Virus record (IMG/VR): IMGVR_UViG_3300008117_000018
Coordinates: 32,001 to 96,000 of that record
Source: a virus
Direction: 5' to 3' (one strand)
DNA length: 64,000 nucleotides
Below are positions 15,249 to 63,251 of this stretch, piece after piece. Under the pieces are notes generated by a model. That model made no database searches. It saw only the letters and a list, made by a program, of their open reading frames with translations, and was not told where the DNA came from. The position numbers and the translations under genes were made by a program. Within the stretch, counting starts at the first letter, position 1. Each line of letters starts with the position of its first letter.

Positions 15249-15685
15249 TGACAAAAGAGTTTAGTGTTGAGTTAGATAATAATAAAATAACTGATTATGA
15301 ACATTTATTATCGAGATTTTCAAATTGGAAAAAATACAAAAGAGAAATAAATCTCAACCAATTATTAGAGAAAGGAAAAAAAATTCAATTTGATATAGAA
15401 ATCAAAAATAATCCAATGGTCTTTTATATCTCAGTAAGTGACCAAGAATATACATACACAACATCACTAACAAATGCATGTTCATCTTTGAAAAAATTAA
15501 CTTTTATAATTTTAGAAAATGAAATTTTGAAACTAGAAGCTGAATTAATTTTATTAAACACACGATGGGGTAAAGTAATTAAAAACTTAGTAGAGTCCGG
15601 CTTAGAATTAAAACTTAATCAACATATAAATATAGAAGGACAAATAGATAACTTTTATTTTGAATTACCAAAACAAGCAGCATGA
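15248..15685 (+). CDS. Hypothetical protein (internal REINLNQLL motif)
   Basis: ORF coupled to rnr. Confidence 0.7.
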   Translation: MTKEFSVELDNNKITDYEHLLSRFSNWKKYKREINLNQLLEKGKKIQFDIEIKNNPMVFYISVSDQEYTYTTSLTNACSSLKKLTFIILENEILKLEAELILLNTRWGKVIKNLVESGLELKLNQHINIEGQIDNFYFELPKQAA

Positions 15686-16116
15686 GGTTTTATAAGATAA
15701 CAACCACTAAACACCAAAGAGAGATTGATGAAATAATTATGTCTATGTCATCAACAGAGGTAGATTATGTATCAACATTATACAACAAGATATCAATGGT
15801 TGAGTTTACCGATGAAAAAGAATACGAATGTATGTTTGCCATTCTAGACAAATATCTATTAAATAAGATATCTGAACTATATCTAAAATACTCTATCGAT
15901 CATAAAATATTTGATTTGACAAAGGATATTATTTTTGATAATAATTTAAAATTATCATATAAAAACTATAGAAATCAACCAGTTAAGAATGAAGTTCTAA
16001 AACTTATTAAATTGTTCAAAAAAGACTGGACTACAAAAGATGATGTTTTGGATAAAATACTAGAAAAAGGAATCAATTCATTATCAGATTTTGATTTAGA
16101 AATTCTGAACTCTTAG
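15682..16116 (+). CDS. Hypothetical protein with C-terminal DUF6576-like helix pair
   Basis: DDVLDKILEKGINSLSDFDLEIL. Confidence 0.65.
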   Translation: MRFYKITTTKHQREIDEIIMSMSSTEVDYVSTLYNKISMVEFTDEKEYECMFAILDKYLLNKISELYLKYSIDHKIFDLTKDIIFDNNLKLSYKNYRNQPVKNEVLKLIKLFKKDWTTKDDVLDKILEKGINSLSDFDLEILNS

Positions 16117-45513: not shown

Positions 45514-45744
45514 ATGAAATGCTTAGAAGTTTTTGATAGGTGCAAAATAAATAAACCATTCTCAAAAGAACTCAAAATATACTCGGAAAAATATTTGAAA
45601 TCAATACTGAAAGAATTAGAAGAAATAGAAGAATACGAGAAATGTCATTTTTTAAATTCATTCATTAAAGAAAGATTTAATCACAAAAAAAACTATTTAA
45701 ATGGTAGCCATTTGCACAATGATATGCAAACCATTTCACTTTGA
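45514..45744 (+). CDS. Small protein with UVR (UvrB/UvrC)-like motif
   Basis: LKELEEIEEYEKCHFLNSFI. Confidence 0.5.
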   Translation: MKCLEVFDRCKINKPFSKELKIYSEKYLKSILKELEEIEEYEKCHFLNSFIKERFNHKKNYLNGSHLHNDMQTISL

Positions 45745-46501
45745 AACTTGGTTAAACTATCACTTTAGTATAGGTGTCGAATATATTTTCTTGAGAGTTG
45801 AAAATACTCCGGAGTTAGAAGAAATTATTTCAAAATATTCAAACGTATTTGCATACTACGACTCTGATGTTAATACTTTTAATAACTACTGGACAATTCA
45901 AAAAAGACAAAACCATTTTTTTGAAACAATAAAACAAAAAATGTTAGATTTAAACATTGAATGGGTCGTCTCAAATATAGATTCTGACGAACTACTTTGT
46001 TGTGAAAACATAAATGAAATTTTAAAAAATGTTCCAAAAAATTATGACGTTGTTCAAATATCTAATTACGAGGCAGTTTACTCAAATGACAACGTTGATA
46101 ATCCATTCATAGAAACAAATACTTTTATAGAAAATAATTTTTTAGCATACGGAAATGGTAAATCCGCGTCTAGATTAAATGAAAAAACCGAAACACATGG
46201 TCCACATTCATTCAAAGGTTCGGTTTTTAAACTTCTTCCAAGAAAAATCTGCGTTTTACACTACGAATCTTCAAATTTTGAAAGATGGTACACTAAATTT
46301 AAAAACTACAACCAGACAGATAAAGAATTAATTGATAAAATACCATTTCCATTTTATAAAGAATCAATCGAAATAATAAGAGAAGGTAACAAAGAAAAAG
46401 CAAGAAAATATTTTAATAAAAAAAAGGTTGATATATCAGAAAACACTTTAAAATTGTATTGGACACCTACATTACAACAAAAAAATATTTGCTGGGGTTA
46501 A
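45701..46501 (+). CDS. GT-A fold glycosyltransferase (GT92/GT2_4-like)
   Basis: WLNYH..IGV..IFL, RQ, NIDSDE, Y.NGKSA, LHYES. Confidence 0.75.
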   Translation: MVAICTMICKPFHFETWLNYHFSIGVEYIFLRVENTPELEEIISKYSNVFAYYDSDVNTFNNYWTIQKRQNHFFETIKQKMLDLNIEWVVSNIDSDELLCCENINEILKNVPKNYDVVQISNYEAVYSNDNVDNPFIETNTFIENNFLAYGNGKSASRLNEKTETHGPHSFKGSVFKLLPRKICVLHYESSNFERWYTKFKNYNQTDKELIDKIPFPFYKESIEIIREGNKEKARKYFNKKKVDISENTLKLYWTPTLQQKNICWG

Positions 46502-46502
46502 T

Positions 46503-47147
46503 TTACTTTTTAAGAGTGATTGTAATAGTAGCACTTTTATCACCATATCTATCTTCTGTTATTTCCTTTTCAACATTAAATTTTGAAAAATCTATACCTC
46601 TAAAAAGACCATTCCATTTTCTATCAGTATAAGAACTTACATATCCATTACAATTAACAGTGATTTTCAATTCTTCTTTATCCAATTTCTTAGTCATACC
46701 ATTAACAAAGTCGCTTTTAGCAGCAAATGTTTTTTTAGTCATTTCATTATAAAGTTGTTGAACTAAAAACAAAGGTCCATCGACTTTAGATTTTTGTATA
46801 AAAGTAACTACTATATGATGTCTCATATGTGGATTTATTGAAACTCTAGAGCTTTCTAAGCGATTTTTAAGAGCTATTAACTCATCTAAGAAATCCCAAA
46901 ATTTATCATCAATAATTGTTTCACTGTATCCACCAGATGGTCCTAATTTAAAAGAGTTTCTAAATATTATATTAATAGATTTATATCCAGAAAATTCACC
47001 TTCGGTTATAATTCTTGGTTCCGAAAAAGAATATTCAATTCCTAGGTCAGCAATAGGAAGTAATAACTCATCTAAATCTTCTTTAGATAAATCTGTTATA
47101 TCCTGAGATTCATTTAAATGTTGTAAAAACTTATGTAAGTATTTCAT
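46503..47147 (-). CDS. Hypothetical protein (MKYLHKFLQHLNES N-terminus)
   Basis: ORF in the late operon. Confidence 0.7.
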   Translation of the reverse strand: MKYLHKFLQHLNESQDITDLSKEDLDELLLPIADLGIEYSFSEPRIITEGEFSGYKSINIIFRNSFKLGPSGGYSETIIDDKFWDFLDELIALKNRLESSRVSINPHMRHHIVVTFIQKSKVDGPLFLVQQLYNEMTKKTFAAKSDFVNGMTKKLDKEELKITVNCNGYVSSYTDRKWNGLFRGIDFSKFNVEKEITEDRYGDKSATITITLKK

Positions 47148-47848
47148 TATTTGTTTTTAAGTTTTTTATCTAATATCTGAGCAATATGACTTCCTATAAA
47201 AAAGTGAAAGTTTTTCAGTGTATCTGTATCAAAAGTTTCTATTTCGTCCATAAATCTAAACTGAAATCTATAATAATCATTTGAGTTATCACTATCATCA
47301 ATATAAACTTTTTTTATAGACAACTCCATATCATATTGATTATTAATGTTGATTTTAAAATCAAAAGTGGTTTTGTCACAAGGAGTGTGTTTAAATTTTG
47401 GTTGATACTGAACATCAAAAACCGAATAATCAGTTATATTCTCTCTGCGCATATAATAATTTAAGAACATTGAAGGTGCCTCAATAAAGTCCGAAAGTAT
47501 CTGTAAATCTTCTCCAAAATCATTTGAATCTACTATATCTTCTATCTTTTTCTTTAAATCTAAGAGATTTTCAAATTGAATTTTATGATAAACACAATTA
47601 ATTTCGTACAAATAAATAAACGAATTTTCAATTAAGTTCTTTTTTTCCGAGTCTACTTTAAATATAAATTTAGTATGAATTATTGAAATATCTTCAGTTG
47701 ACAATCCATGTAAAGTTATTACAAGTTTTAAATAACTATCATCATCTGGTTTTTCATATAATGTCTCAATAGACGAAACCACTGTCTCATCTTCAGTTGT
47801 AAACAACTCTTTAAATATTTCTTCGACCTCTGATATTTTTACTCCCAT
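47147..47848 (-). CDS. Hypothetical protein
   Basis: ORF in the late operon. Confidence 0.7.
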   Translation of the reverse strand: MGVKISEVEEIFKELFTTEDETVVSSIETLYEKPDDDSYLKLVITLHGLSTEDISIIHTKFIFKVDSEKKNLIENSFIYLYEINCVYHKIQFENLLDLKKKIEDIVDSNDFGEDLQILSDFIEAPSMFLNYYMRRENITDYSVFDVQYQPKFKHTPCDKTTFDFKININNQYDMELSIKKVYIDDSDNSNDYYRFQFRFMDEIETFDTDTLKNFHFFIGSHIAQILDKKLKNK

Positions 47849-47853
47849 ATTAA

Positions 47854-48618
47854 TTATTTAAATTGTTTATCGTATAACTTTCTTTTCATTTCCATTACTT
47901 TACCGATATATCCATTTCTTCTAAGTAGTTTAAAAACTAAATTACCTAAAGAAAATTCCCCACTTTCAGAATCTAAACCACTTTGACGATAGTTTTTGAT
48001 TTTTTTCCAAACTTTTTTTATCTTTGGCTCTAATTCGTCAAAGTCTTTACTCTTTGACTCTTCTTCAATATCATCTATTGACATTATAATATTTTTAGAC
48101 TTTTCTTTTATCATTCTTTCATTGGGTTTGAAATCCATTTTGACTGGTTTTTTAACCCATTTATCATGTAGTAACGAATAAACACCACCCATTTTCCCGG
48201 TTTTGAGTTCATCTCTCATAACATCGTCATCTTGAATACAAACCTCAACTTCATATCCTTTTATTTTGATATCATGTTGTTCATTCCAAATCTTTTTAGC
48301 ATAATCACATAGTTTTTCAACTAAGTCATAGTCTTCATCAACATCTTTAAATTTAATTGTTATATGTAAATCATAATCAGAATATTTCTCGGACCAGTTA
48401 TAATTACAAAGAGAACCACAAAGAATTATATCAATTACATCCGCTTTAATTTCAGTACCATCAAAAAAATCCTGACCAATTTGAAGTAATTGTTTTCTAA
48501 CTTCGTTGTCTAATTCAAAATCATCCCATAATTTAGTAGGTAAATTGTCTTGCAATCTAAATGACTTTATAGGTGTAAATGTTCCTCTTTTGAATTCAAA
48601 AAACTTTGTCAATTTCAT
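47854..48618 (-). CDS. Pol-beta-superfamily nucleotidyltransferase
   Basis: ILCGSLCNYNWS..SDYDLHI (GS..DxD), VEVCIQD, GVYSL. Confidence 0.8.
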   Translation of the reverse strand: MKLTKFFEFKRGTFTPIKSFRLQDNLPTKLWDDFELDNEVRKQLLQIGQDFFDGTEIKADVIDIILCGSLCNYNWSEKYSDYDLHITIKFKDVDEDYDLVEKLCDYAKKIWNEQHDIKIKGYEVEVCIQDDDVMRDELKTGKMGGVYSLLHDKWVKKPVKMDFKPNERMIKEKSKNIIMSIDDIEEESKSKDFDELEPKIKKVWKKIKNYRQSGLDSESGEFSLGNLVFKLLRRNGYIGKVMEMKRKLYDKQFK

Positions 48619-48666: not shown

Positions 48667-50328
48667 ATGATTATGAAAAAAATTCTAATTATCGCGCCGC
48701 ACTTATCAACAGGTGGATTACCTCAATTTCTATTAGAAAAAATTCAGATTCTAATAGAAAATTATAAAGTCTTTCTAATAGAATGGTCAAATATAACTGG
48801 TGGAGTATTTGTAGTTCAAAGAAATAAAATCTCTAAATTACTCGGAAATGACTTTTATACTTTAGGTGAAGATAAAAAAATGGTATTAAAAATAATAGAC
48901 GAATTGAAACCGAATGTTGTTCATTTTGAGGAGTTTTCCGAAACATTTATTGACTTTGAAATATTACATAGTATTTATCAAAATAAAAATTATTTTATAA
49001 CCGAAACCACACACGGTACATCTTTCAATATTAATGATAAAAAATTCATTCCTGATAAAATAATGTTTGTCTCAAAGGGTAATTTTAATCAATACAGAAC
49101 AATTACTCAAGATTGTGATGTGATAGAATTTCCTGAAAAAAATAAAAAAAGAGTTGAAAACTTAGAAAAATTAGGTTTAGACCCAAGTTACAAACATATT
49201 TTAAATGTAGGCCTTTTTACCAGTGGTAAAAATCAAGGTGAAATATTTGATTATGCCAGAAAACTAACAGATTATAAAATTAAGTTTCACTTTATAGGAA
49301 ACCAAGCTGGTAATTTTCAAGATTATTGGAAACCAATAATGGATAACAAACCAGATAATTGTATAGTATGGGGTGAAAAGGAAAATGTTAAGGATTTCTA
49401 TGATTCTATGGATCTATTTCTATTTACATCAATTTGGGAAAATAGACCTCTGTCTGTTTTAGAAGCAATAAATAGCGACATGAAAGTTTTAATGTATAAC
49501 TTAACTAATTATGCAAATGACTTTGCCAGATTTAATAATGTTTCTTTTTTAACATCTGACTTTGATTCTAATATAAATTTAATATTAGAGAATCTTTCTA
49601 TTCAAAAATCAAATAAACAAAATAAAAACTCTGTTAAAATTGATACAAATTTTAATCAAAACTCATTAAAAAATACAAATAGAATTTCAACATATCATAT
49701 ACTAACCGATATTGACACAGAAAGAGAAATAAGGTCTATTGCCGACCTATCTAAACTAGAAGATTTTGATTTCTCTTACAATACAATAATTAGTAAAAGA
49801 TGGACAGAACTTCCACCAAAAGAAACTTGTGCCTTTCCAGACATAGTTGCTATGGAACCAGGTGGTAAATTGACACCCGCACACTATGGTTGTTATTTAG
49901 GACACAGAAAAGCTTTTGAAACAGGCTACATAGATAATCCAGAGTATATGATTATATTTGAATGTGATTGCATCTTAGACACTACACATGAAGAGTTTGT
50001 AAAAAAAGTAAATGAAGCTATTGAAATAGTCGAAAAGAATGACCTGTTTATGTTTTCTTTTGGTTTTCACAATAACCAATCAATTTTATCAAAAGAGGAA
50101 AAATATTATAAAGTTTACGAATTTATAGGTGCACATGCTTATTTAATTCCTAGAAAATCTTATAAAACAATTTACGATACTTATCAGAACGAAAAATGGA
50201 ATGTTGCGGATTTATTTATGGGAAACAACTTCAGAAATTTTGTTCATGGAATTTTTCCAAAACCAATTACCAAACAAGCTGGTGGTATATCAATATTAGA
50301 AAATTTAGCAAATGAGGACAGATATTAA
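48667..50328 (+). CDS. Two-domain glycosyltransferase (GT4-like GT-B plus GT25-like)
   Basis: PHLSTGG, NVGLFTSGKNQ, DLFLFTS.WENRPLSVLEA; C-terminal GCYLGH, IFECD, GAHAYLI. Confidence 0.85.
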   Translation: MIMKKILIIAPHLSTGGLPQFLLEKIQILIENYKVFLIEWSNITGGVFVVQRNKISKLLGNDFYTLGEDKKMVLKIIDELKPNVVHFEEFSETFIDFEILHSIYQNKNYFITETTHGTSFNINDKKFIPDKIMFVSKGNFNQYRTITQDCDVIEFPEKNKKRVENLEKLGLDPSYKHILNVGLFTSGKNQGEIFDYARKLTDYKIKFHFIGNQAGNFQDYWKPIMDNKPDNCIVWGEKENVKDFYDSMDLFLFTSIWENRPLSVLEAINSDMKVLMYNLTNYANDFARFNNVSFLTSDFDSNINLILENLSIQKSNKQNKNSVKIDTNFNQNSLKNTNRISTYHILTDIDTEREIRSIADLSKLEDFDFSYNTIISKRWTELPPKETCAFPDIVAMEPGGKLTPAHYGCYLGHRKAFETGYIDNPEYMIIFECDCILDTTHEEFVKKVNEAIEIVEKNDLFMFSFGFHNNQSILSKEEKYYKVYEFIGAHAYLIPRKSYKTIYDTYQNEKWNVADLFMGNNFRNFVHGIFPKPITKQAGGISILENLANEDRY

Positions 50329-51898
50329 ACACGGATTTATTGTAACTTACTTTAGAAGTTCAGACGAATCAGAAAAATTACTTTCTGATATGATCGAAGT
50401 ATTAAGTAAAGAAAATTTCTATTTAGTATTAGCAGCACATAGCTTAGTACCAGTTGAGATACAACAAAAATGTGACTTTTTTATTTATGAGTCTCTAAAC
50501 ATCTCAGATGATAGAAAATATTCACACGGTGTTGCAGAAAGCTCTCTAATTGAAATGTCACTAAATCACCTAAAATATCAAAATATTGAGTGGACATTTA
50601 AAACCTGTTATGATATCATATTAAATGATGTTTCAGTATTTTCTAAAGTTACTAATAATTACAAATTTCCATTTGTAACATGTAATTGGGGCGATCATTT
50701 TATATGCACCCATACTTTTTTTGCAAACGTAGATTTTATACTCAATAATATCAATTTCTACAAAACAGTAGAAGAAATGTTCCAAAACAGCAATGTATTA
50801 GAATTGTGCTGGCAAAATGATATTTTAAATAAAAACTTAAAAGACCAACTCTATATCTACGAAAGTAAAGCAGAGTTATTTGGTAATTCAAATATAATAG
50901 ATGTAGTTGGTTTCAACTATCACAATGTTGAATTCTGGTACGAAGAACAAGAAAATAAATTTTATGTAAAAAATAATGGAGTTGATTATTCAGCAGAACT
51001 TAGAATCTTTGATTACTACAGCGATACTTGTTTGTATGTAAATAAAGATTTTAATCAACCAAAAGGAGCTGTCCATTGGATAGTATCACCAGTGACAGAT
51101 TATTTAAAATTTTCTAAAAACGGATATTATTTAGAGATTTATTTAGAAAATAAAACTATAACAAAAAATATCTTAATAAAAGATTTTAGACTAAAAGATC
51201 CTAACTCAAAAAAATTTAAAAGAATCAAAAGAAAAGAAGTCAAATTTAATGAATATTGTGATTTTACAAATTTTGACCTTTATTCAGAATTTGGGATAGA
51301 TATTAAAAAAATTAATAATTATGTAGACATCGGTGCTTGCTATGGTCTTTCTATTTTACCTTTTTTAGAAAATAATTGTAAAATATACATGATTGAACCC
51401 GATACAAATAATTTAGATATTCTAAAAGATATATGGAGTAACTCAAATAATATAAAAATAATAGATAAAGCAATATCAGACACAAATGGAGTAATAAATT
51501 TCTACATAGAAGAAAATTTGAGTGTTGTATCTAGCATTTTTGAAAAAAATGCCTTAGGTAACGAAAATGGTAGAAAATCTATCGAGATAGAATCCATAAC
51601 ACCAAACAATTTAATAGAAAATTACATAGATGAATCTGAGATTGACCTTATGAAAGTTGACATTGAAGGAGCAGAGTATCAATTTTTTGAAAATATCACA
51701 AAAGAAAACTTATCTAAAGTTAAAAGATTTATTATTGAGTTTCATAATAACGAAGACTTTAGAGTGATGAATATATTAAAAACACTAGCTAAAAACGGAT
51801 TTAGATATAAATTATCCAAATGGCAAAATTGGGATGATGATTTTATCATTTCAAATAAAATGGGTATAATTTACGCAGAAAAAACTAATAAATTATGA
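50312..51898 (+). CDS. FkbM-family methyltransferase with N-terminal GT-like domain
   Basis: VDIGACYG, IEP, KAIS, IDLMKVDIEGAE, IEFH. Confidence 0.85.
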   Translation: MRTDIKHGFIVTYFRSSDESEKLLSDMIEVLSKENFYLVLAAHSLVPVEIQQKCDFFIYESLNISDDRKYSHGVAESSLIEMSLNHLKYQNIEWTFKTCYDIILNDVSVFSKVTNNYKFPFVTCNWGDHFICTHTFFANVDFILNNINFYKTVEEMFQNSNVLELCWQNDILNKNLKDQLYIYESKAELFGNSNIIDVVGFNYHNVEFWYEEQENKFYVKNNGVDYSAELRIFDYYSDTCLYVNKDFNQPKGAVHWIVSPVTDYLKFSKNGYYLEIYLENKTITKNILIKDFRLKDPNSKKFKRIKRKEVKFNEYCDFTNFDLYSEFGIDIKKINNYVDIGACYGLSILPFLENNCKIYMIEPDTNNLDILKDIWSNSNNIKIIDKAISDTNGVINFYIEENLSVVSSIFEKNALGNENGRKSIEIESITPNNLIENYIDESEIDLMKVDIEGAEYQFFENITKENLSKVKRFIIEFHNNEDFRVMNILKTLAKNGFRYKLSKWQNWDDDFIISNKMGIIYAEKTNKL

Positions 51899-54171
51899 TT
51901 AAAACAAAAGTTAAAATAGATTTTCAGGGCTCTGATGTAGTCGAAGTCACAAACATGACCGATATAAGATTAGAAAATTGTTTATTAGATATAAAGAACA
52001 TTCTTTACGGAACAATATGTTATCAAACATTCGATTTATCACCAAACGAAACTATAACATTTCAATTATCAAAAGATAATTTTTATGAAGAGTGGAAGGA
52101 TGAAAAATTTAATGTTAAATTTTATTCAAACCATAAGTTGATTATTGAAAAAAGTTATAATGATAAATCAAAATGTTTTGTGATTTTAACAAATGATAAG
52201 TTTGAAAAATTAGCTGAACAATTAATCATAGGATTAGTTAAATATACCGATATTGATATTTTACATTATAACATCGGTTATAAATCTACACTAAACTATC
52301 CAAATCTAAAAAATATAGAATTTGGAATTGGTGAAGACACAAATGATCCTCACTACATGCAGTTTTCAAAAGCTCCTGTGTTTTTAGATGTGATTGAGAA
52401 AGGTTATAAAAATTGCATATTTTTAGATGTTGATATACAAGTGAGACCAAATATCTATAAAATGTTCGAATTATTGAGTGAAATAGAAGATGGTCCGATT
52501 TTTCAAAAAGGCGCACATGATTACACTTTAGTTGGTAAAGAATATGTTCCAGGCCCATTGGTTCAAAATTTGTTAGAGCTTCCTAATCAAAAATACCCAC
52601 ATGGGATAACCAATGTAGTTCTTTTTACAAATAATCACAAGAATTTATTTCAACAATGGAAGGATGTATGCTTTTCCAAAGAGATAAAAGAAATAAAAAA
52701 AGTAGAGTTCCTACATGATGAATTGTTGTTAAATGGATTGATGTGGAAAAATAACATCAAGCCAAAATATTATTGGTTTGGTTTGAATATTGACTCAATT
52801 GAAGATGTTAAATTTTTCTATAACTATAATAATAATACATTCAATGATCGTGTCGATTTAAATGACTACGGTATAGGTCATCCTTTTCAATCCTTTATAC
52901 CTTTTGATAAAGAACAAATAATGTTCTTTCATTGTATAAAAGATCCAAATGTTGCAAAAAAAATAAATGATTATGTATCTGAAAGAGAATATGGTAGTTT
53001 CTCCGATAGAATTTCATCATTCTATAAAGACATAAAATTTACCGAAAATAGAATATTAGAAAAAACAAATATTCAAATAATATCACACTACATAGATGGA
53101 CCATACGTTGAAATTTTATGTAATGAAAAAAGAAACTTTATTGTAAATTTCTTTGACGGAAAAATGAAATTAATACATCGTTCAGAAATCACTAGTAATA
53201 TGTGGACAAGAGCAAATAAAAGATATTATGATGATTATACCGTTCAAATAATAGAAAACGGAGAGGTTATTTTTGAAGAACAAATTAATTTAGAAAATAA
53301 AAGAGTTTTGATAACAATAGAATCTTCATCACTTGGAGATTCTCTAGCATGGATGCCATACGCTGAGGAATTTAGAAAAAAACATAATTGTGAGGTCATA
53401 TTATCAACATTCAATAATGAAGTTTTTGAACAAAACTATCCAAATTTAATTTTCTCAAAACCAGGTGAAGTTGTTCACAATCTACACGCATTATATAGGA
53501 TTGGCTGGTATTACGACGCTTCAATGGAAGTAGACTATTCAAGAGTTCCAAATAACTTTAGAATGCAACCTATGCAAAAAACTGCCTCTGATATTTTAGG
53601 TTTAGAGTATAAGGAAGTTATGCCATTACTCACATTACCCAATGTAGAAAAGAAAAGAAAAGTAGGTATTGCAATACATGCAACAGCACAAGCTAAATAT
53701 TGGAACAATCCAACTGGTTGGCAAGAGGTTGTAGATTATCTAAATAGTTTGAACTATGAAGTAATGTTATACTCACGAGAAGGAGATGGCTATATGGGAA
53801 ATTATCATCCATCTGGTATAACTAAATATCCAGGCGGAACGTTACAAGATGTTATAAATGATTTAGCAACTTGTGAATTCTTCATAGGCATAGGTTCAGG
53901 TCTCAGTTGGTTATCTTGGGCTACAAAATTACCAACCATTATTGTGTCTGGATTTAGTTACGATTATACTGAAACAATTTCAAATACGTGGAGAGTAATA
54001 AATAAAAAGACTTGCACAGGTTGCTTTAATACTCATAGATTGGATCCAGGAGATTGGAATTGGTGTCCTATATTTAAAGGAACTGAAAAACATTTTGAGT
54101 GTAGTAAGGAAATAAGTAGTCAAGTGGTAATAGATAAAATAAATGATGTTATAAATACTTTACGTAATTAA
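51895..54171 (+). CDS. GT-A domain fused to Aah/TibC-type (BAHT) protein O-heptosyltransferase
   Basis: FLDVD (DxD); HYIDGPYVEI, SSSLGDSLAW.PY...F...H.C, AQAKYWN...GW..V, FFIGIGSGLSWL.WA, iron finger CTGC...WCP...FEC. Confidence 0.8.
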   Translation: MIKTKVKIDFQGSDVVEVTNMTDIRLENCLLDIKNILYGTICYQTFDLSPNETITFQLSKDNFYEEWKDEKFNVKFYSNHKLIIEKSYNDKSKCFVILTNDKFEKLAEQLIIGLVKYTDIDILHYNIGYKSTLNYPNLKNIEFGIGEDTNDPHYMQFSKAPVFLDVIEKGYKNCIFLDVDIQVRPNIYKMFELLSEIEDGPIFQKGAHDYTLVGKEYVPGPLVQNLLELPNQKYPHGITNVVLFTNNHKNLFQQWKDVCFSKEIKEIKKVEFLHDELLLNGLMWKNNIKPKYYWFGLNIDSIEDVKFFYNYNNNTFNDRVDLNDYGIGHPFQSFIPFDKEQIMFFHCIKDPNVAKKINDYVSEREYGSFSDRISSFYKDIKFTENRILEKTNIQIISHYIDGPYVEILCNEKRNFIVNFFDGKMKLIHRSEITSNMWTRANKRYYDDYTVQIIENGEVIFEEQINLENKRVLITIESSSLGDSLAWMPYAEEFRKKHNCEVILSTFNNEVFEQNYPNLIFSKPGEVVHNLHALYRIGWYYDASMEVDYSRVPNNFRMQPMQKTASDILGLEYKEVMPLLTLPNVEKKRKVGIAIHATAQAKYWNNPTGWQEVVDYLNSLNYEVMLYSREGDGYMGNYHPSGITKYPGGTLQDVINDLATCEFFIGIGSGLSWLSWATKLPTIIVSGFSYDYTETISNTWRVINKKTCTGCFNTHRLDPGDWNWCPIFKGTEKHFECSKEISSQVVIDKINDVINTLRN

Positions 54172-54715
54172 CATAACAATCTGAACTATTATGATAAGTA
54201 TTGGTCGGAATGTCACAAGTAATATTCATAATATATTGATGTAATCTATCACCATATTTATATCGGTCTCTTCCTTTTGGATCAAAATAAGAAAAAACCC
54301 CATTTTTAGAAAGAGATCTATCAACAACTTTTTCTCTAAAAAATGAGATATTATCACAATCAGCATCATAGAATATACCATCATATTTATGTTGATTTAT
54401 CTTCCAATATATTTTATACCAATCACCATAAATCACTCTAACATTTTCCTTTGACTCTGACCATATTTTTAACTTCTCGTAGATTTGTGGATTTACTTCA
54501 ACTATTGTATGTGATTGAATTGAAAAACTTTGAACATAATTTGCAAAAATTCCCATGCCAAAACCTATTTCTAAAATATGACCACCATTCTGACAGACTA
54601 CTTTTGAATGTTCAAACATAAGCTCATTTTCCCAACTCATCATAACAAATGAATTAGGTTCATTTTCTAAATGAATTGAATCTTCACTAAATACAACATT
54701 TCTACCATTTGTCAT
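54149..54715 (-). CDS. Class I SAM methyltransferase (GAMT/RMT2-like)
   Basis: VMMSWE..LM, ILEIGFGMGI, HTIVE, GDW, YDGIFYD. Confidence 0.85.
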   Translation of the reverse strand: MTNGRNVVFSEDSIHLENEPNSFVMMSWENELMFEHSKVVCQNGGHILEIGFGMGIFANYVQSFSIQSHTIVEVNPQIYEKLKIWSESKENVRVIYGDWYKIYWKINQHKYDGIFYDADCDNISFFREKVVDRSLSKNGVFSYFDPKGRDRYKYGDRLHQYIMNITCDIPTNTYHNSSDCYVNYVKYL

Positions 54716-55020
54716 ATTACCTCACATATATATCCCATACTTTCATATCTCTGAACAGCATATGTGTAAACCGAATCCAATGATTGTATCTCATTAGTGG
54801 CGTCTATACTACATAAAATATTACCATCATGTAAATCAGTGAATATTTTGATGCCTTGATGGTATTTTTCTTTTGAATAATATATCTCAATTTCAATTTC
54901 CATATTTCTACCATTTGAATGTGCTTTAAATCCAACTCTAGCATAAACTGAATCAAGCTCAACATCTGTACCTAATATGTGAATTTTTCTTTTTTCTGTA
55001 CTCTTTATTAATAAACCCAT
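54712..55020 (-). CDS. Small hypothetical protein (possible fibre accessory)
   Basis: Directly downstream of a fibre gene. Confidence 0.6.
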   Translation of the reverse strand: MGLLIKSTEKRKIHILGTDVELDSVYARVGFKAHSNGRNMEIEIEIYYSKEKYHQGIKIFTDLHDGNILCSIDATNEIQSLDSVYTYAVQRYESMGYICEVI

Positions 55021-55032
55021 AAAATCTTTTTT

Positions 55033-56895
55033 TTAAAAATACGTAGTTACTACAACAATCCCATCACCACCACGGCCACCAGCACCTGATACAACACCAA
55101 CACCAACATTACTTGAAGCAGCACCACCACCACCTCCGCCTCCATATAGACCACCAGCGGATCCAGAACCGGCTGCAATATTACTAGAGCCTCCGCCTCC
55201 GCCTCCTTGACCAAACAAAGTTCCAGCAACTTGACTCAAAGCAAGACCACCACTTGCAGCAATAGGACCACCGTTTGTATCACCTGTAATAAATATTTGT
55301 CTTATGTTACCACCACTTCCACCAGATTGTAAAGCATTAGCCGAACTAATTGAGCCTCCGCCTCCGCCTCCGCTCGGTCCATATGGTATTTCAGCACCAT
55401 CATCCGCAGTAGCAGCCGTATTCGATCTACCTCCATTAGCAGGGTTAGTTAGATAAGTATTACCAACACCTCCAATCGGTGGAAGTATACTTTTAGCAGA
55501 AGAGCCACCAAAACCGGCGCCTCCGCCTCCAGCAAAAGAAAAAGTTCCAAAAAGACTATTACCACCAGCCGAACCAGGTCTACCATTAGTTGAGTCAGTT
55601 GCTTGAGAACCACCTCCTGTACCAGATGTACCAACTGTAACCGAGACAGTAGATGGCAAATCTTGACCGATGAAATTAGTAACAGAAACACCACCACCTC
55701 CACCACCATCACCACCCATTCTAGTAGAAGAAGCAGCACCTCTTCTACCAGAGCCACCTCCACCACCAGCACCAATAAGAATAACATTTACTAATTTAGC
55801 TCCATTTGGTTTAGTCCAAGTAGAATTTGAGGTATAAACTTGGACATTTGAAGCACTAACGTTTCCTTGACCCGACGTACCAGAAGTAGAACCTGACGTA
55901 CCAGAAGTACCAGAGGTAGTTGCTTGACCTCTTGTTCCAGATGTACCTTCAGAAGCTTGAGTACCAGATGTACCAAATGTTCCACTCGTTCCACTTGTAC
56001 CATTTGAACGACTTATTCCAGATGTACTAATACCACTTGTTCCAGATGTAGATGAGAGTGCAGAAAAGCCAACTATTGATGAACCACTTGTTCCAGCAGT
56101 AGAAACACCACCTGAACTTCCCGAGGTACCGGATGTTGAAACATCACCATTAGTACCAGATGTTCCTTTAGTACCGGAAGTAGCAACTTGACCCGTTGTT
56201 CCAGCAGTACCAGACTGACCAGATGTACCATTAGTACCAGATGTACCCTGAGTACCAGATGTACCAGATTGACCAGATGTTCCAGCAGTTCCAGTTTGTA
56301 CACCGGATGTACCGGATGTACCAGATTGAGTAGAAACAGCATTTGTAGTTATGTTACCTGATGTACCAGATGTCGTAAGAGAAGCATTTGCAGTTGAAAT
56401 ACCAAAATTACCAGATGTTCCGGATGTATTAGAGTTCCCGGATGTTCCGGATGTGTTAGATGTTCCTGATGTTCCTGATGTTGTTATTTGACCTCTTGTA
56501 CCAGAGGTACTTGATAAACCAGATGTTCCAGCAGTCGTTGATAAAGTATTATTAGTTGATATTCCAGAGAGACTACTGACTGAAGAAAAACCCTGTGTAC
56601 CAGATGTTCCAGATGTTCCATTTGTACCAGATGTTCCAGATGTTCCATTTGTACCAGATGTTGCATTAAAAACAGCACCTGAGCTACCAGAAGTTGAATT
56701 CTGACCAGATTGACCAGATTGACCATTTGTACCAGAAGTATTTGAAATACTACTATTTCCAGATGCACCGGATGACAAAGAATTTCCAGAAGTACCGCTG
56801 GTTTTAGAAGAACCATTTGTACCAGAAAGTCCATTTGTACCAGACGTTCCACTCTGTATTAAACCACTAACACTATTAATTTTAGATAACGACAT
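55033..56895 (-). CDS. Gly-Thr-Ser repeat fibre-like protein with C-terminal glycine-rich domain (paralog 3)
   Basis: TSG triplets; [24 protein letters not shown]...[12 protein letters not shown]; own late box. Confidence 0.8.
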
Positions 56896-56905
56896 AATTT
56901 ATATA

Positions 56906-58780
56906 TTAAAATCTAGTAATGACAACAACCACACCGTCACCACCATCACCACCACGACCCGAACTAAATCCGTTAGTAGAAGCACCTCCGCCTCCGCCAC
57001 CACCTCCATATAGACCACCATCACCTCCCCTGCCTCCAGGAGTAAGCGCGATATTACTTCCAGCACCACCACCAGCACCACCTCTTCCCAATAAAGAAGC
57101 ATCTGAACCAGGTCCAGTTTGACCATTTACCCCAACAGCTGCACCAGCAGCAAATATTGTACTATTATCAACCGTCAATATTGACCCACCGTTTCCTCCA
57201 GTCCCGAATACATTAGTAGCAGAAATGTTACCACCACCTCCACCACCAGTCGGTTTATAAGGAGTATCCTCAGCAGCACCACCCGATGTTCCACCATCAC
57301 CAGTATTACCTGAAGTTCCTGGATAATTAACATCACCACCAATACCACCGGTACTAAATGAAGCGGTTTTACCACCATCTCCACCTCGACCACCTCCCAC
57401 AGTCAAATAGACATTAGCACCAGTAATATAATCACCAAATATAGTATCGTCACCATTATTACCATCATTACCGTTTGTGTTTATAGTTGAAATTGCAGCA
57501 CCACCACCACCACCAGCACCCGGATTACAAAGCACACTAGATGGTAGTATTGAGGCATTAATAAGAACTCTAACATGTCCTCCTGAACCACCACCAGATC
57601 CACCGAATCTTGTTCTACCAGAAGCATTCAAAGCACCAGAACCACCACCACCGCCACCACCTATACAAATGACCTCAACCATTTTAGCACCGCTTGGTTT
57701 AGTCCATGTAGCATTTACAGCCGAATAGGTATTAATTTGTATAGAAACAGCACTGGTACCACTTGTACCAAAAGTACCCGATGTTCCCGAAAACCCACCA
57801 GAACCGGAAGTTCCAGAGGTTCCACCAGTTTTTGAGATACCAGAAGTTCCGGATGTTTGAGATGTTCCTGAAGAACCACTAAGAGTACCAAAACCAGAAG
57901 TTCCTGAAGTAGTACCAGATGTACCGGAAGTAGATGATAAACCAGAAGTACCGGAAGTTCTGAATGCACTAGATGTACCCGAATTACCACTATTTCCTGT
58001 TGTTCCTGAAGTACCACTATTACCATTAGTTCCAGATGTTCCAGAAGTCGATGATAAACCAATTGTACCTGATGTACCTCGTGTACCACTAGTACCAGAA
58101 CCACTTGATACACCAGAACCACCAGAAAATGAAGAGACACTTGATACCCCAGAACTTCCTGATGTACTTGAATTTCCAGATAAAGAAGAAGTTCCAGATG
58201 TACCAGAAGTTCTACTTTGACCAGAACTTCCTGATGTACCTGTAGTTCCTGAACTACCCGATGTTCCAGAAGTAGTCAATCCAGAGGTACCGGAGGTTGA
58301 CGAATTTGCGGAGGTTCCTGATGTATTTGAAGTTCCAAAAGTTCCAGAAGTTGATGAGTTATTACTCAAACCAGAAGTTCCAGAAGTAGTATTCAAACCA
58401 TTAGAAAAAGAATTACCGGACGTCCCTGATGTCGTATTGACACCGGATGTACCGGAGGTTGTATTAATACCTGATGTTCCAGAAGTATTTGAAGAATTAC
58501 TTATGCCAGATGTACCAGATGTACCAAATCCTCCAGATGTACCAGAAGTATTGTTATTTCCAGATGTACCAGAAGTATTGTTATTTCCAGATGTACCAGA
58601 TGTTCTAGTTAAACCGGATGTTCCAGCGGTTGAAGATAAACCAGATGTTCCTGAAGAACTATTATTACCAGAACTACCACTAGTGCCGTTGGTTCCTGAT
58701 GTACCAGAACTACCAGAAGTCGATGATAAACCAGATGTACCGGATGTATTATAATTTACACTATCTATTTTATTTATCAT
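56906..58780 (-). CDS. Gly-Thr-Ser repeat fibre-like protein with C-terminal glycine-rich domain (paralog 2)
   Basis: TSG triplets; WTKPSGAKMVEVICIGGGGGGGSG...GGDGVVVVITRF; own late box. Confidence 0.8.
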   Translation of the reverse strand: MINKIDSVNYNTSGTSGLSSTSGSSGTSGTNGTSGSSGNNSSSGTSGLSSTAGTSGLTRTSGTSGNNNTSGTSGNNNTSGTSGGFGTSGTSGISNSSNTSGTSGINTTSGTSGVNTTSGTSGNSFSNGLNTTSGTSGLSNNSSTSGTFGTSNTSGTSANSSTSGTSGLTTSGTSGSSGTTGTSGSSGQSRTSGTSGTSSLSGNSSTSGSSGVSSVSSFSGGSGVSSGSGTSGTRGTSGTIGLSSTSGTSGTNGNSGTSGTTGNSGNSGTSSAFRTSGTSGLSSTSGTSGTTSGTSGFGTLSGSSGTSQTSGTSGISKTGGTSGTSGSGGFSGTSGTFGTSGTSAVSIQINTYSAVNATWTKPSGAKMVEVICIGGGGGGGSGALNASGRTRFGGSGGGSGGHVRVLINASILPSSVLCNPGAGGGGGAAISTINTNGNDGNNGDDTIFGDYITGANVYLTVGGGRGGDGGKTASFSTGGIGGDVNYPGTSGNTGDGGTSGGAAEDTPYKPTGGGGGGNISATNVFGTGGNGGSILTVDNSTIFAAGAAVGVNGQTGPGSDASLLGRGGAGGGAGSNIALTPGGRGGDGGLYGGGGGGGGASTNGFSSGRGGDGGDGVVVVITRF

Positions 58781-58791
58781 AACTATATATA

Positions 58792-60702
58792 TTAAGTAAA
58801 ATAAGTTGTAACAACAACAATTCCATTCGCACCAAAACCACCGTTTCCAAACTTATCACCACGAGGTATGTTATCGCCATTAAGACCAGCACCACCGCCT
58901 CCACCGCCTGCACCATAAAGAGCACCATTAGCACCAATACCGGATCTAGCAGCTCCTCCACCTCCTCCACAACCAATATCAGAAAAAGAATCACCCTCAT
59001 TACCATCAGTTAATGATGGGTCAGTACTAGCAATTCCAGGATTACCACCTAAACCGTTGGTATATTGAACTGTACCACCATCTCCCCCGTCGAAATTAGT
59101 ATTACTAGCGTTTATACTACCACCACTACCTCCACCAGTTGGTGCTCTGAATGTGAGAGCACCAGCAACACCAATACCACCAGCACTATTTCCACCAGAA
59201 CCTCCACGTTCAATATTACCATAACCACCTGAATTGTTAGAAGTCGGAATACTAGCAGATGAACCACCTCCACCACCTCCACCACCAAAAGCAATTAGGT
59301 TACTACCAAATCCAGAACCTAGTGCTGAAGTACCAAATATCGAATCAGTACCCGCGGCACCATCACTTCCATCTTGATTATTGGCAGTCACTACTCCTCT
59401 ACTACCACCCTGACCAACCTGAACCGTCTCTGAGTTTTGTAAATCAGAAGCCCTGAAAATAGCTCGTGAAAAACCTCCACCACCTCCACCATTACCACCC
59501 CATCGAGCAGTACTAGTAGCTGACCTTCTACCAGCACCTCCTCCTCCGCCACCACCAATACAAATCACTTCAACCTTATCTGCATTTGCAGGCTTTGACC
59601 AACTAAAAATTGTTGTAAGTGGACTAGCAATAACCGTGTAAACCTGAACATCAATAACATTCAGTGTACCGGATGTTCCAGATGTTCTTGATAAACCAGA
59701 AGGAGCAATAGCTCCTTGACTAGTTGATATACCAGAAGTTCCACTTGTCGTAGCATTAGGAAAAGAAGATTGAAAACCAGAAAAATTTGGATTATTACCG
59801 GTAGTTCCTGAAGTACCTTGTGTACCAGATGTACCTACAGCTCTGCTAAGACCACCCGTACCAGAGCTACCAGAGGTACCATTGGTTGAATTTAATCCAG
59901 CAGTACCACTAGTAGAAAAATTGGTTGATATTCCTGTGTTACCACTACTACCAGATGTTGTGGAAAATCTGTTACCACCACTCTCTCCACTCGTACCAGA
60001 AGTTCTAGATAGACCGTTAGTAGTCAGACCTGATGTTCCATTTGTTCCTGAAACCGAAACAAAACTACTTGAGGTTCCAGACGATCCAGCGGTACTCTGT
60101 GGCGTTTGAGCAGATATACCTGAATTTCCAAATGTACCAGATGAACCAGAGGTCAATGAAACCCTGCTTGAACCAGAATTTGATGAATTTGATGAATTTC
60201 CAGACGTACCAGAAGTTTTATTTGAACCAGATGTTCCACTTGTACCATTCGTACCTGATGTAGAAGAATTTCCAGCGGTTCCTGTAGTACCATTTGCTGA
60301 AGACTGACCAGAAGTACCGGAAGTTGAATTTGTACCAGAAGTGGATGATTGGCTTGACAAACCAGACGTACCACTCGTACCATTAGTTCCAGAAGTAGAA
60401 GAATTTCCAGCGGTTCCTGTAGTACCATTACTTCTTGAATTACCAGCCGTGCCTGATGTAGAAGAGGTACCAGCTGTTGAATTTATACTTGAAATCCCAC
60501 TTGAACCTGAAGTACCAGAACTACCAGAACTACCGGATGTTGTAGATAAACCACTAGTACCTGTTGTACCAGAACTACCAGAAGTACCAGAAGTACCAGA
60601 AGTAGAACTTACTAAGCTATTAGTAGATTGTCCAGATGTACCAGATTGACCATTTGTACCGGACGTACCAGTATCTATAACAATACCATTTATTTTCTGC
60701 AT
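58792..60702 (-). CDS. Gly-Thr-Ser repeat fibre-like protein with C-terminal glycine-rich domain (paralog 1)
   Basis: TSG triplets; [24 protein letters not shown]...[13 protein letters not shown]; own late box. Confidence 0.8.
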   Translation of the reverse strand: MQKINGIVIDTGTSGTNGQSGTSGQSTNSLVSSTSGTSGTSGSSGTTGTSGLSTTSGSSGSSGTSGSSGISSINSTAGTSSTSGTAGNSRSNGTTGTAGNSSTSGTNGTSGTSGLSSQSSTSGTNSTSGTSGQSSANGTTGTAGNSSTSGTNGTSGTSGSNKTSGTSGNSSNSSNSGSSRVSLTSGSSGTFGNSGISAQTPQSTAGSSGTSSSFVSVSGTNGTSGLTTNGLSRTSGTSGESGGNRFSTTSGSSGNTGISTNFSTSGTAGLNSTNGTSGSSGTGGLSRAVGTSGTQGTSGTTGNNPNFSGFQSSFPNATTSGTSGISTSQGAIAPSGLSRTSGTSGTLNVIDVQVYTVIASPLTTIFSWSKPANADKVEVICIGGGGGGGAGRRSATSTARWGGNGGGGGGFSRAIFRASDLQNSETVQVGQGGSRGVVTANNQDGSDGAAGTDSIFGTSALGSGFGSNLIAFGGGGGGGGSSASIPTSNNSGGYGNIERGGSGGNSAGGIGVAGALTFRAPTGGGSGGSINASNTNFDGGDGGTVQYTNGLGGNPGIASTDPSLTDGNEGDSFSDIGCGGGGGAARSGIGANGALYGAGGGGGGAGLNGDNIPRGDKFGNGGFGANGIVVVTTYFT

Positions 60703-60726
60703 GTCTTATATATTAAAATACAAGTC

Positions 60727-63251
60727 TTACAATTCTATCCAATCTTGAGAAGGATTAAAATAAATTCTTCTATTTGTAGAAGTTCCTATTACATAACCTA
60801 TGACTCTTACAATATTTCCAGCAGAAGAAGGCGCAGCAGCGACTGTTCTACCAGCTGTTGAAGAACTCAAAAATAATGGCTCTCCTATATTACCAACGGT
60901 GAATAAAGAAGAACGATAGAAGCCTCTTACTAACATACCATCATTGGTTGAGTTTGTGCCAATTGCAACGGCTAATAAATCATTTCCGCCATTTACCAAT
61001 ACATCACCTTGTGCTTTAGTCCAAGTACCACCGGTATTTAGGTAGTAAATTTCACCAGCAACAGTTGTTGTATTTCCAAAATTAACAATATCACCATAAC
61101 CGGTGCTATCAGCCGATAAATAAGTATTGGATGTAGGGTCAGATATTAAATCATAACTACCAGATAATACTAAATTTGTACCATCAAAAGTAAAGTTTGG
61201 TTCACCATCTAATGTAGAAGCAGTACCAGTCATAGTAACAACTCTGTTATTAGAATTACCATTTAGTGTGACCGTCGCTGAGTTGCCAGATGTTCCAGAA
61301 GTTCCTTGGTTTGTTGTTATAAACAATAATAAATCAATTGAATTACTAAAGTTAGTAGTACCTGTTCCACCAGAATCTATATAAGTTACCGGAAATGAAT
61401 AGTAGTTATTAGAAACAAAAGTTGGATTAGAATTTACTTTCCAAGTCTGATAATTATTTGAATTTGTTCTATCTTGAATTATAATATTCTGACCAATTTG
61501 CATCAACCCTAGAAATACATCAATATCATCACTATTTGTAGTAAAATGATCGATGTTGATAATAGTAGAAGCTGTCTGACCTGAGCTATTCCAAATTATG
61601 AAACCTGGTCCTGGATCTCCACTGAATATTGTTGTGTTGGATTGATACGGAAATACATTGGACGAACCACCGTTTAAACCACTAGTACCGGAAGTTCCTT
61701 TAGTTCCGGAAGTTCCAGCAGTTCCATTGGCACCATTAGCACCGGAAGTTCCGGTAGTTCCATTAGCACCATTAGCACCCGAGGTTCCAGCAGTTCCGTT
61801 AGCACCATTAGCACCCGAGGTTCCAGCAGTTCCGTTAGCACCATTAGCACCGGAAGTTCCTGATGTTCCGTTAGCACCATTTGCACCAGAAGTTCCTGAT
61901 GTTCCGTTAGCACCATTTGCACCAGAAGTTCCTGATGTTCCATTAGCACCGGAAGTTCCTGATGTTCCATTAGCACCGGAAGTTCCGGCAGTTCCATTAG
62001 CACCCGAGGTTCCAGCAGTTCCGTTAGCACCATTAGCACCCGAAGTCCCCGAAGTCCCAGCAGCTGAATTGATTGTTAATATGTTACCATTTGTATCAAA
62101 ACCAAGAGCTCCAATAGAAGTTCCTGGAAATTTACCAGCGGTGTTATAATTAGGTAGTTGTAATTGACCAGTCAAATGATTTATTTGTAAATCAACAGCA
62201 CTTGAAGTAGTATTATTTCCTTTAAGTATTCTAAAGGAGTCTTGATAGTTATCTATAGCAGAAGCTGTACCATATCCAGAACCAGATTGAAGTGTTATTT
62301 GACCACCTTCACCAGAACCTCCTCTTGCGCCCAGAAATAAAGTAGCCTCTGTTGATGAATAAGTTGTTCCTATTAGAACGGATATTGAATTCTGTGTCGA
62401 AGACTGCGTAACTGTCATCCATGTTGAAGCAACAGCAGCATTTGTAGAACCATCTGACAATAAAACACGTAAATTGCCAGCATTACTGATTGTGTTGAAA
62501 CCTGTTCCAGAAGTACCTGATGTTCCGTTAGCACCCGAGGTTCCAGCAGTTCCGTTAGCACCATTAGCACCCGAGGTTCCAGCAGTTCCGTTAGCACCAT
62601 TAGCACCAGAAGTTCCAGCAGTTCCGTTAGCACCGTTAGCACCCGAGGTTCCAGAAGTGCCATTAATTCCAGAGGTTCCGGATGTTCCCGATACCCCATC
62701 AAGACCATTTAATAAAATCCAATCATTAAGTGAAGATGGAACATTATTATTATTATTTGCAGTGGATTGATAAGAAAACAAACCATCAATACAGCAGCAC
62801 CGTTAACACCGGATGTCCCAGAAGAACCTGATGTACCATTATCTCCTTGATTACCGGAAGTTCCTGATGTACCATTATCTCCTTGATTACCGGAAGTTCC
62901 AGCAGTCCCATTATTTCCATTAACACCGGAAGTTCCAGCAGTTCCGTTAGCACCATCTACACCAGAAGTTCCTGATGTTCCATTAGAACCTGTTGCACCC
63001 ATGCCAGATGTACCTGATTGTTTTAAAACTAAATTCCCATCTAAAATACCACCATAAAACCAATATTCTACTATGGGATCAGAACCAACAATAATACCAA
63101 CCGTCAAACCTTCATATCTATAAGATGGTAATAAGTAAGTAGTTGCTGCCGAAAGAGCTGCTGATAAGTTGGCACCAGTATATGGACCATATTTGGCATC
63201 ACCGGGACCTGTAGTTTTAGCTAGTATGTTATCACTTAAATTAATTGCCAT
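60727..63251 (-). CDS. Collagen-like (GTS/GAN) fibre protein split by a frameshift near 62790 (track ORFs 62709..63251 plus 60727..62781)
   Basis: Repeats continue across a frame change at ...GCT GCT GT ATT GAT GGT...; the C-terminus of the 180-aa ORF is out-of-frame junk and the downstream ORF has no credible start. Confidence 0.7.

Follow-up and report, generated by a model that had tools for sequence, protein, structure and literature searches.

The window analysed here is a stretch of 64,000 nucleotides, positions 32,001 to 96,000 of the IMG/VR virus record IMGVR_UViG_3300008117_000018, which is 111,418 bases long and was estimated by CheckV to be 44% complete. Between positions 48667 and 63251 the window encodes a candidate system for protein O-glycosylation, in which a plus-strand block of glycosyltransferase (GT) genes converges on a minus-strand block of fibre genes. 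At the centre of this locus is P0003, a fusion protein that ends in a BAHT (bacterial autotransporter heptosyltransferase) domain, the domain of the E. coli protein O-glycosyltransferases TibC and Aah. These enzymes attach heptose from ADP-heptose to Ser, and TibC modifies an adhesin. The features of the locus are as follows.

48667-50328, plus strand: P0001, 553 residues; GT4-type GT-B domain (residues ~1-330) fused to a GT25 domain (~398-513)
50312-51898, plus strand: P0002, 528 residues; modelled GT-A-like fold (1-195) and beta-sandwich (200-290), followed by an FkbM methyltransferase (339-499)
51895-53130, plus strand: N-terminal half of P0003; modelled beta-sandwich (1-90) and GT-A glycosyltransferase with a DxD motif (D178, D180)
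53131-54171, plus strand: C-terminal half of P0003 (whole protein 51895-54171, 758 residues); BAHT (TibC/Aah-type) protein O-glycosyltransferase domain
54149-54715, minus strand: P0004, 188 residues; small class-I S-adenosylmethionine (SAM) methyltransferase resembling guanidinoacetate N-methyltransferase (GAMT)
54712-55020, minus strand: P0005, 102 residues; overlaps P0004 by 4 nt
55033-56895, minus strand: P0006, 620 residues; Gly/Ser/Thr-rich N-terminal 350 residues and a Gly_rich_2 C-terminal domain; candidate acceptor
56906-58780, minus strand: P0007, 624 residues; paralogue of P0006; PF21722 at 38.4 bits
58792-60702, minus strand: P0008, 636 residues; third paralogue; PF21722 at 33.9 bits
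60727-62781, minus strand: P0009, 684 residues, TTG start; collagen-like fibre with a globular C-terminal domain
62709-63251, minus strand: P0010, 180 residues; N-terminal domain and 23 Gly-X-Y triplets; PF01391 at 51.9 bits

A first-pass annotation of this DNA had described an operon-like plus-strand block and a convergent minus-strand block, and every open reading frame (ORF) was found where that annotation placed it. The three plus-strand genes overlap by 17 and 4 nt and the gaps in the minus-strand block are 10-25 nt, so the description is correct; where the two blocks converge, they overlap by 23 nt. In total, the locus holds five transferase-type domains and two methylases. A scan for sigma-70 promoters and terminators gave no useful excess over shuffled sequence in the AT-rich DNA of the window.

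The BAHT domain of P0003

Residues 435-755 of P0003 were aligned by phmmer with residues 61-385 of TibC (4RAP) at an E-value of 4e-61. Against TIGR04414 (hepto_Aah_TibC, an NCBIfam equivalog model of autotransporter strand-loop-strand O-heptosyltransferases with a cut-off of 200 bits), the protein scored 268.2 bits, with profile positions 27-373 of 374 covered, and identity between its BAHT domain and plasmid-borne Aah-like enzymes was ~36%. Both matches bear out the family assignment made in the first-pass annotation. The alternative raised there, a better fit to the GT9 enzymes of lipopolysaccharide (LPS) synthesis, was rejected, as the GT9 profile PF01075 gave 23.1 bits (cut-off 22) against 268 bits for the BAHT model.

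In TibC, Asp-110 is the catalytic base, the donor is contacted by Thr-226, Lys-230, Arg-286, and Trp-305, the hydrophobic tip of a beta-hairpin thumb is formed by Phe-265 and Val-266, and Phe-368 and a 1Fe-0S iron finger of Cys-339, Cys-342, Cys-358, and Cys-370 have also been described (PMC4358343). Arg-286 contacts N1 of the adenine, which is the basis of ADP-sugar use, and the corresponding Ala mutant had abolished or largely diminished heptosylation (PMC4358343). The counterparts in P0003 are D482 for the catalytic base, T597, K601, and W672 for the donor contacts, and F734 for Phe-368. At the thumb tip, Y633-M634 takes the place of F265-V266, hydrophobic yet different, and V653 occupies the position of Arg-286. 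The C-terminal motif CTGC..WCP..FEC had been read as an iron finger, and its cysteines do fall in register, C707, C710, C724, and C736 aligning with TibC C339, C342, C358, and C370; an iron finger is predicted in P0003, with all four cysteines present and invariant.

Equivalents of D110, T226, K230, W305, F368, and the four cysteines were kept in all 84 phage homologues compared, in which the thumb tip was almost always Y-M. The Arg-286 position was Val, Leu, or Ile in 82 of the 84 and in all Methylococcales/Burkholderiales members, and Arg in every classical member checked. Judged by these residues, the BAHT domain of P0003 looks active. As Arg-286 is replaced by Val while the catalytic set is kept, the donor need not be ADP-heptose. 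A caution to this effect in the first-pass annotation was apt, the adenine-contacting Arg being Val, Ile, or Leu across the whole fibre-linked clade described below.

Gly-Thr-Ser repeat genes beside BAHT genes in phages and bacteria

BAHT-domain relatives are encoded by 259 viral stretches, and locus counts were taken from the best 80. A neighbour was called Gly-Thr-Ser (GTS)-rich when an ORF lying no more than 10 kb from the BAHT gene had at least 65% Gly+Ser+Thr in 100 residues. Such an ORF was present in 45 of the 80 loci, often convergent and immediately downstream as in the window, and in 23 of 39 non-redundant phage rows after near-copies had been collapsed. One locus (L016) has a six-domain order identical to that of the window, right after a GTS ORF of 1446 residues. 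A GT4 domain was found ~1.2 kb upstream of the BAHT domain, or fused to it, in 73 of 83 viral loci; the two are joined in one polypeptide in 50 of these 83, and FkbM is joined to them as well in 11. Among whole contigs of 110-290 kb, GTS genes lay 0.5-7 kb from BAHT in 9 of 12, and in a loose-pattern search of the five contigs of 220-290 kb, several had GTS genes at this site alone. A GTS ORF was likewise found 5 kb from BAHT in the 735-kb phage LR756501/LR756503, and none was found within 15 kb of BAHT in LR756504.

The cultured Microcystis phage Mel-JY01 encodes a 1227-residue GT4/methylase/BAHT fusion adjoining a GTS ORF of 805 residues that is unannotated. In its record (PP395634.1), the fusion is labelled merely as 'methyltransferase FkbM', and the GTS ORF, which lies just upstream on the plus strand (L001, 635-3052), is shadowed by a minus-strand 'hypothetical protein' at 739-2298. 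Two BAHT loci were observed in a 436-kb contig classed as a provirus (G009, the contig of L126), at ~278.6 kb and ~160.2-161.2 kb, the latter split in two, together with 131 strict GTS pattern matches.

The association was also examined in reverse, with 28 viral contigs of at least 55 kb chosen solely by a DNA pattern for a GTS-type run. TIGR04414 matched in 18 of the 28, 17 of them over the cut-off, and in four of the five contigs with a completeness of 90% or more; the contigs with no match are mostly fragments. For comparison, the base rate in the phage record collection was 4 BAHT-encoding records among 50,697 deposited. The co-occurrence that had been put forward for testing was thus positive in both directions (45/80 forward and 18/28 against 4/50,697 in reverse), and it was seen in bacteria as well. 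BAHT was present in the sufficiently complete phages related to the source record by their large terminase subunit (TerL), hence these relatives contain no BAHT-negative control.

The nearest genomic homologues of the BAHT domain (43-50% identity) were found in Methylococcales, Polaromonas, and other Burkholderiales. In 16 of 21 loci of this type, a stand-alone BAHT enzyme of ~370-385 residues is encoded a few hundred bases from a (GTS)n protein of 100-336 residues; in one such protein the GTS triplet is repeated 43 times without a break. A Sec or lipoprotein leader is present in at least 14 of the repeat proteins, and around two loci that were inspected lie housekeeping genes, among them lgt, thyA, ppa, and a gene for a DEAD-box helicase. 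More distant homologues (Selenomonadaceae and Acidisphaera) and plasmid Aah-like genes have autotransporter-type repeats beside them, the plasmid genes adjoining AIDA-I.

A quick maximum-likelihood tree, built with IQ-TREE partly on truncated domains, placed the GTS-linked and the autotransporter-linked enzymes on opposite sides of one branch with a support of 100. Neighbour type changes once on this tree, and none of 500 label shuffles did as well. The change from Arg to an aliphatic residue and the Y/H-M thumb tip track the GTS-linked clade exactly. The BAHT domain of the 735-kb phage (L002, LR756501.1, ~15001-16050) keeps the Arg and falls on the classical side, yet has a GTS-rich ORF 5 kb away; it could be an intermediate or an independent recruitment.

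Companion enzymes, fibre genes, and genomic setting

The first-pass calls on the companion enzymes held up under profile and structure searches. For P0001, both Pfam domains scored over their cut-offs, Glycos_transf_1 (PF00534) at 41 bits (cut-off 26.4) and Glyco_transf_25 (PF01755) at 30.5 bits (cut-off 24), in agreement with the GT4+GT25 fusion that had been proposed. The FkbM domain of P0002 likewise passed curated cut-offs, with 58.4 bits for PF05050 (cut-off 22.7) and 68.3 bits for TIGR01444 (cut-off 37.7). A Pfam search of the N-terminal halves of P0002 and P0003, of P0005, and of the flanking ORFs returned no match. For the N-terminal half of P0002, an AlphaFold2 model built from 35 homologues (predicted local distance difference test, pLDDT, 89.5) has a GT-A-like nucleotide-sugar transferase fold and a beta-sandwich, which agrees with the earlier GT-like call. 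Its nearest structures in Foldseek were glycogenin/GT8 and A64R, a capsid-glycosylating protein of the chlorovirus PBCV-1, with E-values of 6e-6 to 1e-4 and modest template-modelling (TM) scores. Nearly all of the 91 homologues of P0002 have the same fusion.

The domain in the N-terminal half of P0003 is uncommon, being found in 54 cluster representatives out of 1.84 billion proteins. Its AlphaFold2 model (pLDDT 86.5) consists of a beta-sandwich followed by the GT-A fold that had been called, and Foldseek matched it to alpha-1,3-GalT, the ABO enzymes GTA/GTB, LgtC, and chondroitin synthase in the PDB at E-values of ~1e-7 to 1e-8, with a probability of 1.0 for alpha3GalT, GTA/GTB, and LgtC. By this model, it is a GT-A fold resembling retaining GT6/GT8 enzymes, with no established CAZy family. 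D180 is invariant and D178 nearly so among 21 homologues.

P0004, which had been called GAMT-like, matched guanidinoacetate N-methyltransferase (1XCJ) at an E-value of 5e-13 over residues 22-118, the SAM-binding half, and gave a weak RrnaAD match in Pfam; a homologue lies downstream of BAHT in one other viral locus (L004). P0005 had no match in Pfam, PHROGs, or NCBIfam.

The fibre block contains two kinds of protein. P0006, P0007, and P0008 each end in a Gly_rich_2 domain and match phage minor-tail families; P0006 matches PF21722 at 40.3 bits and PHROG minor-tail and tail-fibre families, and P0008 is 38% identical to P0006 across 428 residues. Gly, Ser, and Thr make up 72-77% of their first 350-360 residues, which contain 96-113 Ser and 0-4 Pro; the first 350 hold 96 Ser, 75 Thr, and 0 Pro in P0006 and 113 Ser, 75 Thr, and 0 Pro in P0007. 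The Gly-X-Y runs in these proteins are short and broken, at 4-12 triplets (the longest being 12, 8, and 6, respectively), so a continuous triple helix is doubtful. The collagen profile PF01391 stayed below its cut-off of 27.2 bits for P0006 and P0007 (23.9 and 19.3 bits) and did not match P0008. A tblastn search of the BAHT loci with the Gly_rich_2 C-termini of the three gave no match, although the low-complexity filter may have masked them.

P0009, by comparison, has uninterrupted Gly-X-Y runs of 23 and 44 triplets, in which X is Thr or Ala and Y is Ser or Asn; it passes the PF01391 cut-off with 82.1 bits and matches PHROG tail-fibre families. Its C-terminal domain was found again downstream of BAHT in 15 loci. 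On the minus strand, P0010 and P0009 are read in different frames where they overlap (62709-62802), the tail of P0010 after GTSGVNG looks out of frame, and P0009 has a TTG start and no N-terminal domain; the two are probably a single fibre gene of ~860 residues with a frameshift, whether programmed, mutational, or an assembly error. Thus, of the four collagen-like fibres of the first-pass annotation, the regular repeats stand for P0009/P0010, and the description does not fit the interrupted runs of P0006-P0008. The tail-fibre block extends ~11 kb beyond the 3' end of the window, where a fibre-like protein of 788 residues (L204, 3516-5882; G000, 98715-101081) has a Gly-Thr/Ser-Ser run of ~50 residues. 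Counting this protein, there are at least six candidate acceptors.

With regard to its source, the window codes for a 1327-residue tail sheath, a large terminase, a portal, a major head protein, and a prohead protease. These genes rule out a giant eukaryotic virus, which was considered in view of the low GC and the collagen-like genes. TerL relatives with 76-86% identity include contigs of 436 and 476 kb. GC is 26-33% over most of the window and 37-43% across the fibre block, a rise due to Gly, Ser, and Thr codons. The tail sheath gene (38221-42204, plus strand) is unusually long; the sheath-family match is limited to the C-terminal 360-400 residues of its product, and the N-terminal 900 are unmatched.

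Just upstream of the transferase operon, at 46503-48618 on the minus strand, are three small genes of 214, 233, and 254 residues, the last with a weak Pol-beta nucleotidyltransferase-like match. Their synteny with the GT4-BAHT gene extends to 7-11 other viral contigs, and they may be connected with the glycosylation module. An ORF of 266 residues at 45701-46501 on the plus strand gave a sub-threshold Glyco_tranf_2_4 match (E = 0.0023, 18.8 bits) and may be a sixth transferase near the cluster.

Proposed glycosylation of tail fibres, rival readings, and known systems

We consider it likely, on the strength of sequence evidence, that the locus encodes a protein O-glycosylation system acting on the phage's own tail fibres. 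The identities of the domains, the conservation of the catalytic residues, and the linkage of the genes in phage and bacterial genomes were observed directly, while the acceptor, the order of steps, the methylation of the sugars, and any biological role, such as the shielding, helix stabilisation, or adhesion suggested in the first-pass annotation, are inferred. Late in infection, the first sugar would be taken from a nucleotide sugar by the BAHT domain of P0003 and attached to hydroxyl groups of Ser residues, which stand in a Thr-Ser-Gly context within the Gly-Thr-Ser tracts. TibC and Aah modify the product of the neighbouring gene in the cytoplasm, and by analogy this step would be cytoplasmic as well. 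The candidate acceptors would be P0006-P0010 and the further fibre outside the window. The domain would probably work as an iron-finger-stabilised oligomer of the TibC kind, and its N-terminal fusion might alter a ring like the TibC dodecamer. The glycan could then be extended by the GT4 and GT25 domains of P0001, the GT-A-like domain of P0002, and the GT-A domain of P0003, and methylated by the FkbM and GAMT-like enzymes, with densely glycosylated, proline-poor collagen-like fibres as the expected product.

The two sites mapped in TibA are Ser-Gly (NSGG and VSGT), and TibC modified Ser and not Thr (PMC4358343). Each GTS triplet offers T-S-G, similar to these sites, and by analogy the Ser of the GTS tracts is most likely the residue glycosylated by the BAHT domain. 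The fibres are the likely sugar acceptor because the pairing of enzyme and repeat recurs in many phages and in ordinary bacteria. The fusion of GT4 and FkbM to BAHT speaks for a single pathway of priming, extension, and methylation.

Several observations weigh against fibre glycosylation. The acceptors known for BAHT enzymes are the beta-helical repeats of autotransporters and not collagen-like tracts. A 58-kb phage that is 98% complete has a GTS run and no BAHT domain. The GTS genes lie ~40 kb from BAHT in three contigs of one lineage, and a collagen-like gene lies ~75 kb away in the closest TerL relatives. Glycosyltransferases are common in the tail-fibre regions of large phages, and other roles have been suggested for them (PMC7029224). 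Regarding the donor, the Arg on which ADP-sugar use depends in TibC is replaced by V653, no heptose-pathway genes (GmhA and RfaE-type) were found in the 111-kb genome fragment, and such genes were found in one of five near-complete relatives checked (GmhA-like and cytidylyltransferase-like). The heptose-gene search is uninformative on donor identity; host-supplied ADP-heptose is one option, though the ADP-specificity Arg is missing. The 344-kb BAHT phage G020 (the contig of L018) has a GmhA-like SIS_2 gene and cytidylyltransferase-like genes (119292-119696 and 127242-127376), and it may encode a heptose-nucleotide pathway of its own.

Three rival readings were judged less likely than glycosylation of the fibres. 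The protein glycosylated by the BAHT domain could instead be a different protein of the virion or one of the host, an adhesin for instance. The acceptor has been assigned through linkage alone, BAHT lies 40-75 kb from the repeat genes in two phage lineages, and one locus (L003) has no GTS ORF within 15 kb, all of which suit such an acceptor. Co-occurrence nevertheless persists at the genome level where adjacency fails, the bacterial two-gene modules indicate the repeat protein as the acceptor, and in classical BAHTs the neighbour is the acceptor gene, so that we regard a different acceptor as improbable. A slightly smaller chance still is given to remodelling of a host surface glycan (LPS core or O-chain, or capsule), which might, for instance, prevent superinfection or help release, with the operon near the fibres merely through a shared variable host-recognition region. 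The GT4, GT25, and GT8-like families are typical of LPS synthesis, which counts against a role on fibres, and glycosyltransferases of the tail-fibre region have been read as host-glycan remodelling in pelagimyophages (PMC7029224). However, P0003 passes an equivalog model for a protein O-glycosyltransferase, BAHT is hugely enriched in contigs picked for a GTS run alone, and the (GTS)n pairing occurs in bacterial chromosomes, where phage module structure does not explain adjacency. Finally, that the fibre-linked clade has lost or changed its transferase chemistry, acting as a fibre-binding chaperone or with a non-sugar donor and with the repeats as binding partners, would account for the clade-wide replacement of Arg-286 and the Y/H-M thumb tip in place of F-V, but is very improbable, as the catalytic Asp, T226, K230, and W305 are invariant in 84 phage and ~20 bacterial members, which is unexpected for a non-enzyme, and the GT4 and FkbM fusions suit a glycan pathway.

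Beyond fibre glycosylation at this locus, the data may point to a widespread, hitherto undescribed clade of TibC-type enzymes that serve Gly-Thr/Ser-Ser collagen-like repeats instead of autotransporters. Such enzymes would coat proline-poor collagen-like fibres with mucin-like, methylated glycans, and their sugar donor might not be ADP-heptose. We hold the case for such a clade, and with it a new enzymatic route to virion glycosylation, to be evenly balanced. The proposed clade is marked by an aliphatic residue at the Arg-286 position and a Y/H-M thumb tip, and its predicted range takes in large phages, where the domain is fused to transferases and methylases, and the Methylococcales/Burkholderiales two-gene modules with secreted (GTS)n proteins. 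Full-text literature searches found BAHT enzymes connected neither with phages nor with collagen-like repeats; BAHT enzymes with autotransporter partners are already well described, and virion glycosylation is known in mycobacteriophages.

Glycosylation of phage-particle proteins is documented for few phages, and host range, particle stability, and recognition all depend on the tail fibres. If collagen-like fibres are coated by TibC-type enzymes in hundreds of environmental phages, a function would be provided for many glycosyltransferases of phages that are currently assigned to the modification of DNA or LPS, and the BAHT family would extend past virulence autotransporters to a second class of acceptor. 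There would also be a hint of how triple helices of proline-free Gly-Thr-Ser repeats could gain stability or shielding. Tractable test systems exist in the cultured phage Mel-JY01 and in culturable Methylobacter and Polaromonas with their two-gene modules.

Among known systems, the LPS heptosyltransferases WaaC and WaaF (CAZy GT9, PF01075) have the GT-B superfamily in common with the BAHT domain of P0003, but are without the iron finger, thumb, and beta-barrel of BAHT/TibC enzymes. Collagen-like Gly-X-Thr/Ser repeats with dense O-glycans on an external filament are found in BclA of the Bacillus anthracis exosporium and in Mimivirus fibrils, which differ from the present system in their enzymes and sugars; we know of no BAHT domain in either. 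Virion glycosylation is reportedly the subject of 'Virion glycosylation influences mycobacteriophage immune recognition', and in mycobacteriophages, as proposed here, phage-encoded glycosyltransferases are thought to decorate the phage's own structural proteins. In actinobacteriophages the sugars are placed on capsid and tail-tube proteins by enzymes that are not known to be of the BAHT type, whereas here the putative acceptors are large-phage fibres and the enzyme is TibC-like.

The closest parallel is with the TibC-TibA and Aah-AIDA-I pairs of E. coli (TIGR04414; 4RAP/4RB4; PMC4358343), with which P0003 shares the catalytic Asp, the Thr, Lys, and Trp contacts, the iron-finger cysteines, and the equivalent of F368. 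As with TibC and Aah, the phage BAHT gene adjoins a gene for a long Ser-rich repetitive protein; unlike theirs, its product would act on a phage fibre containing collagen-like Gly-Thr-Ser tracts and not on an AIDA-type autotransporter encoded next door. P0003 further differs from TibC in its Val at the Arg-286 position, its Y-M thumb tip, its fusion to a GT-A domain, the company of three more transferase domains and two methylases, and its place in a separate clade.

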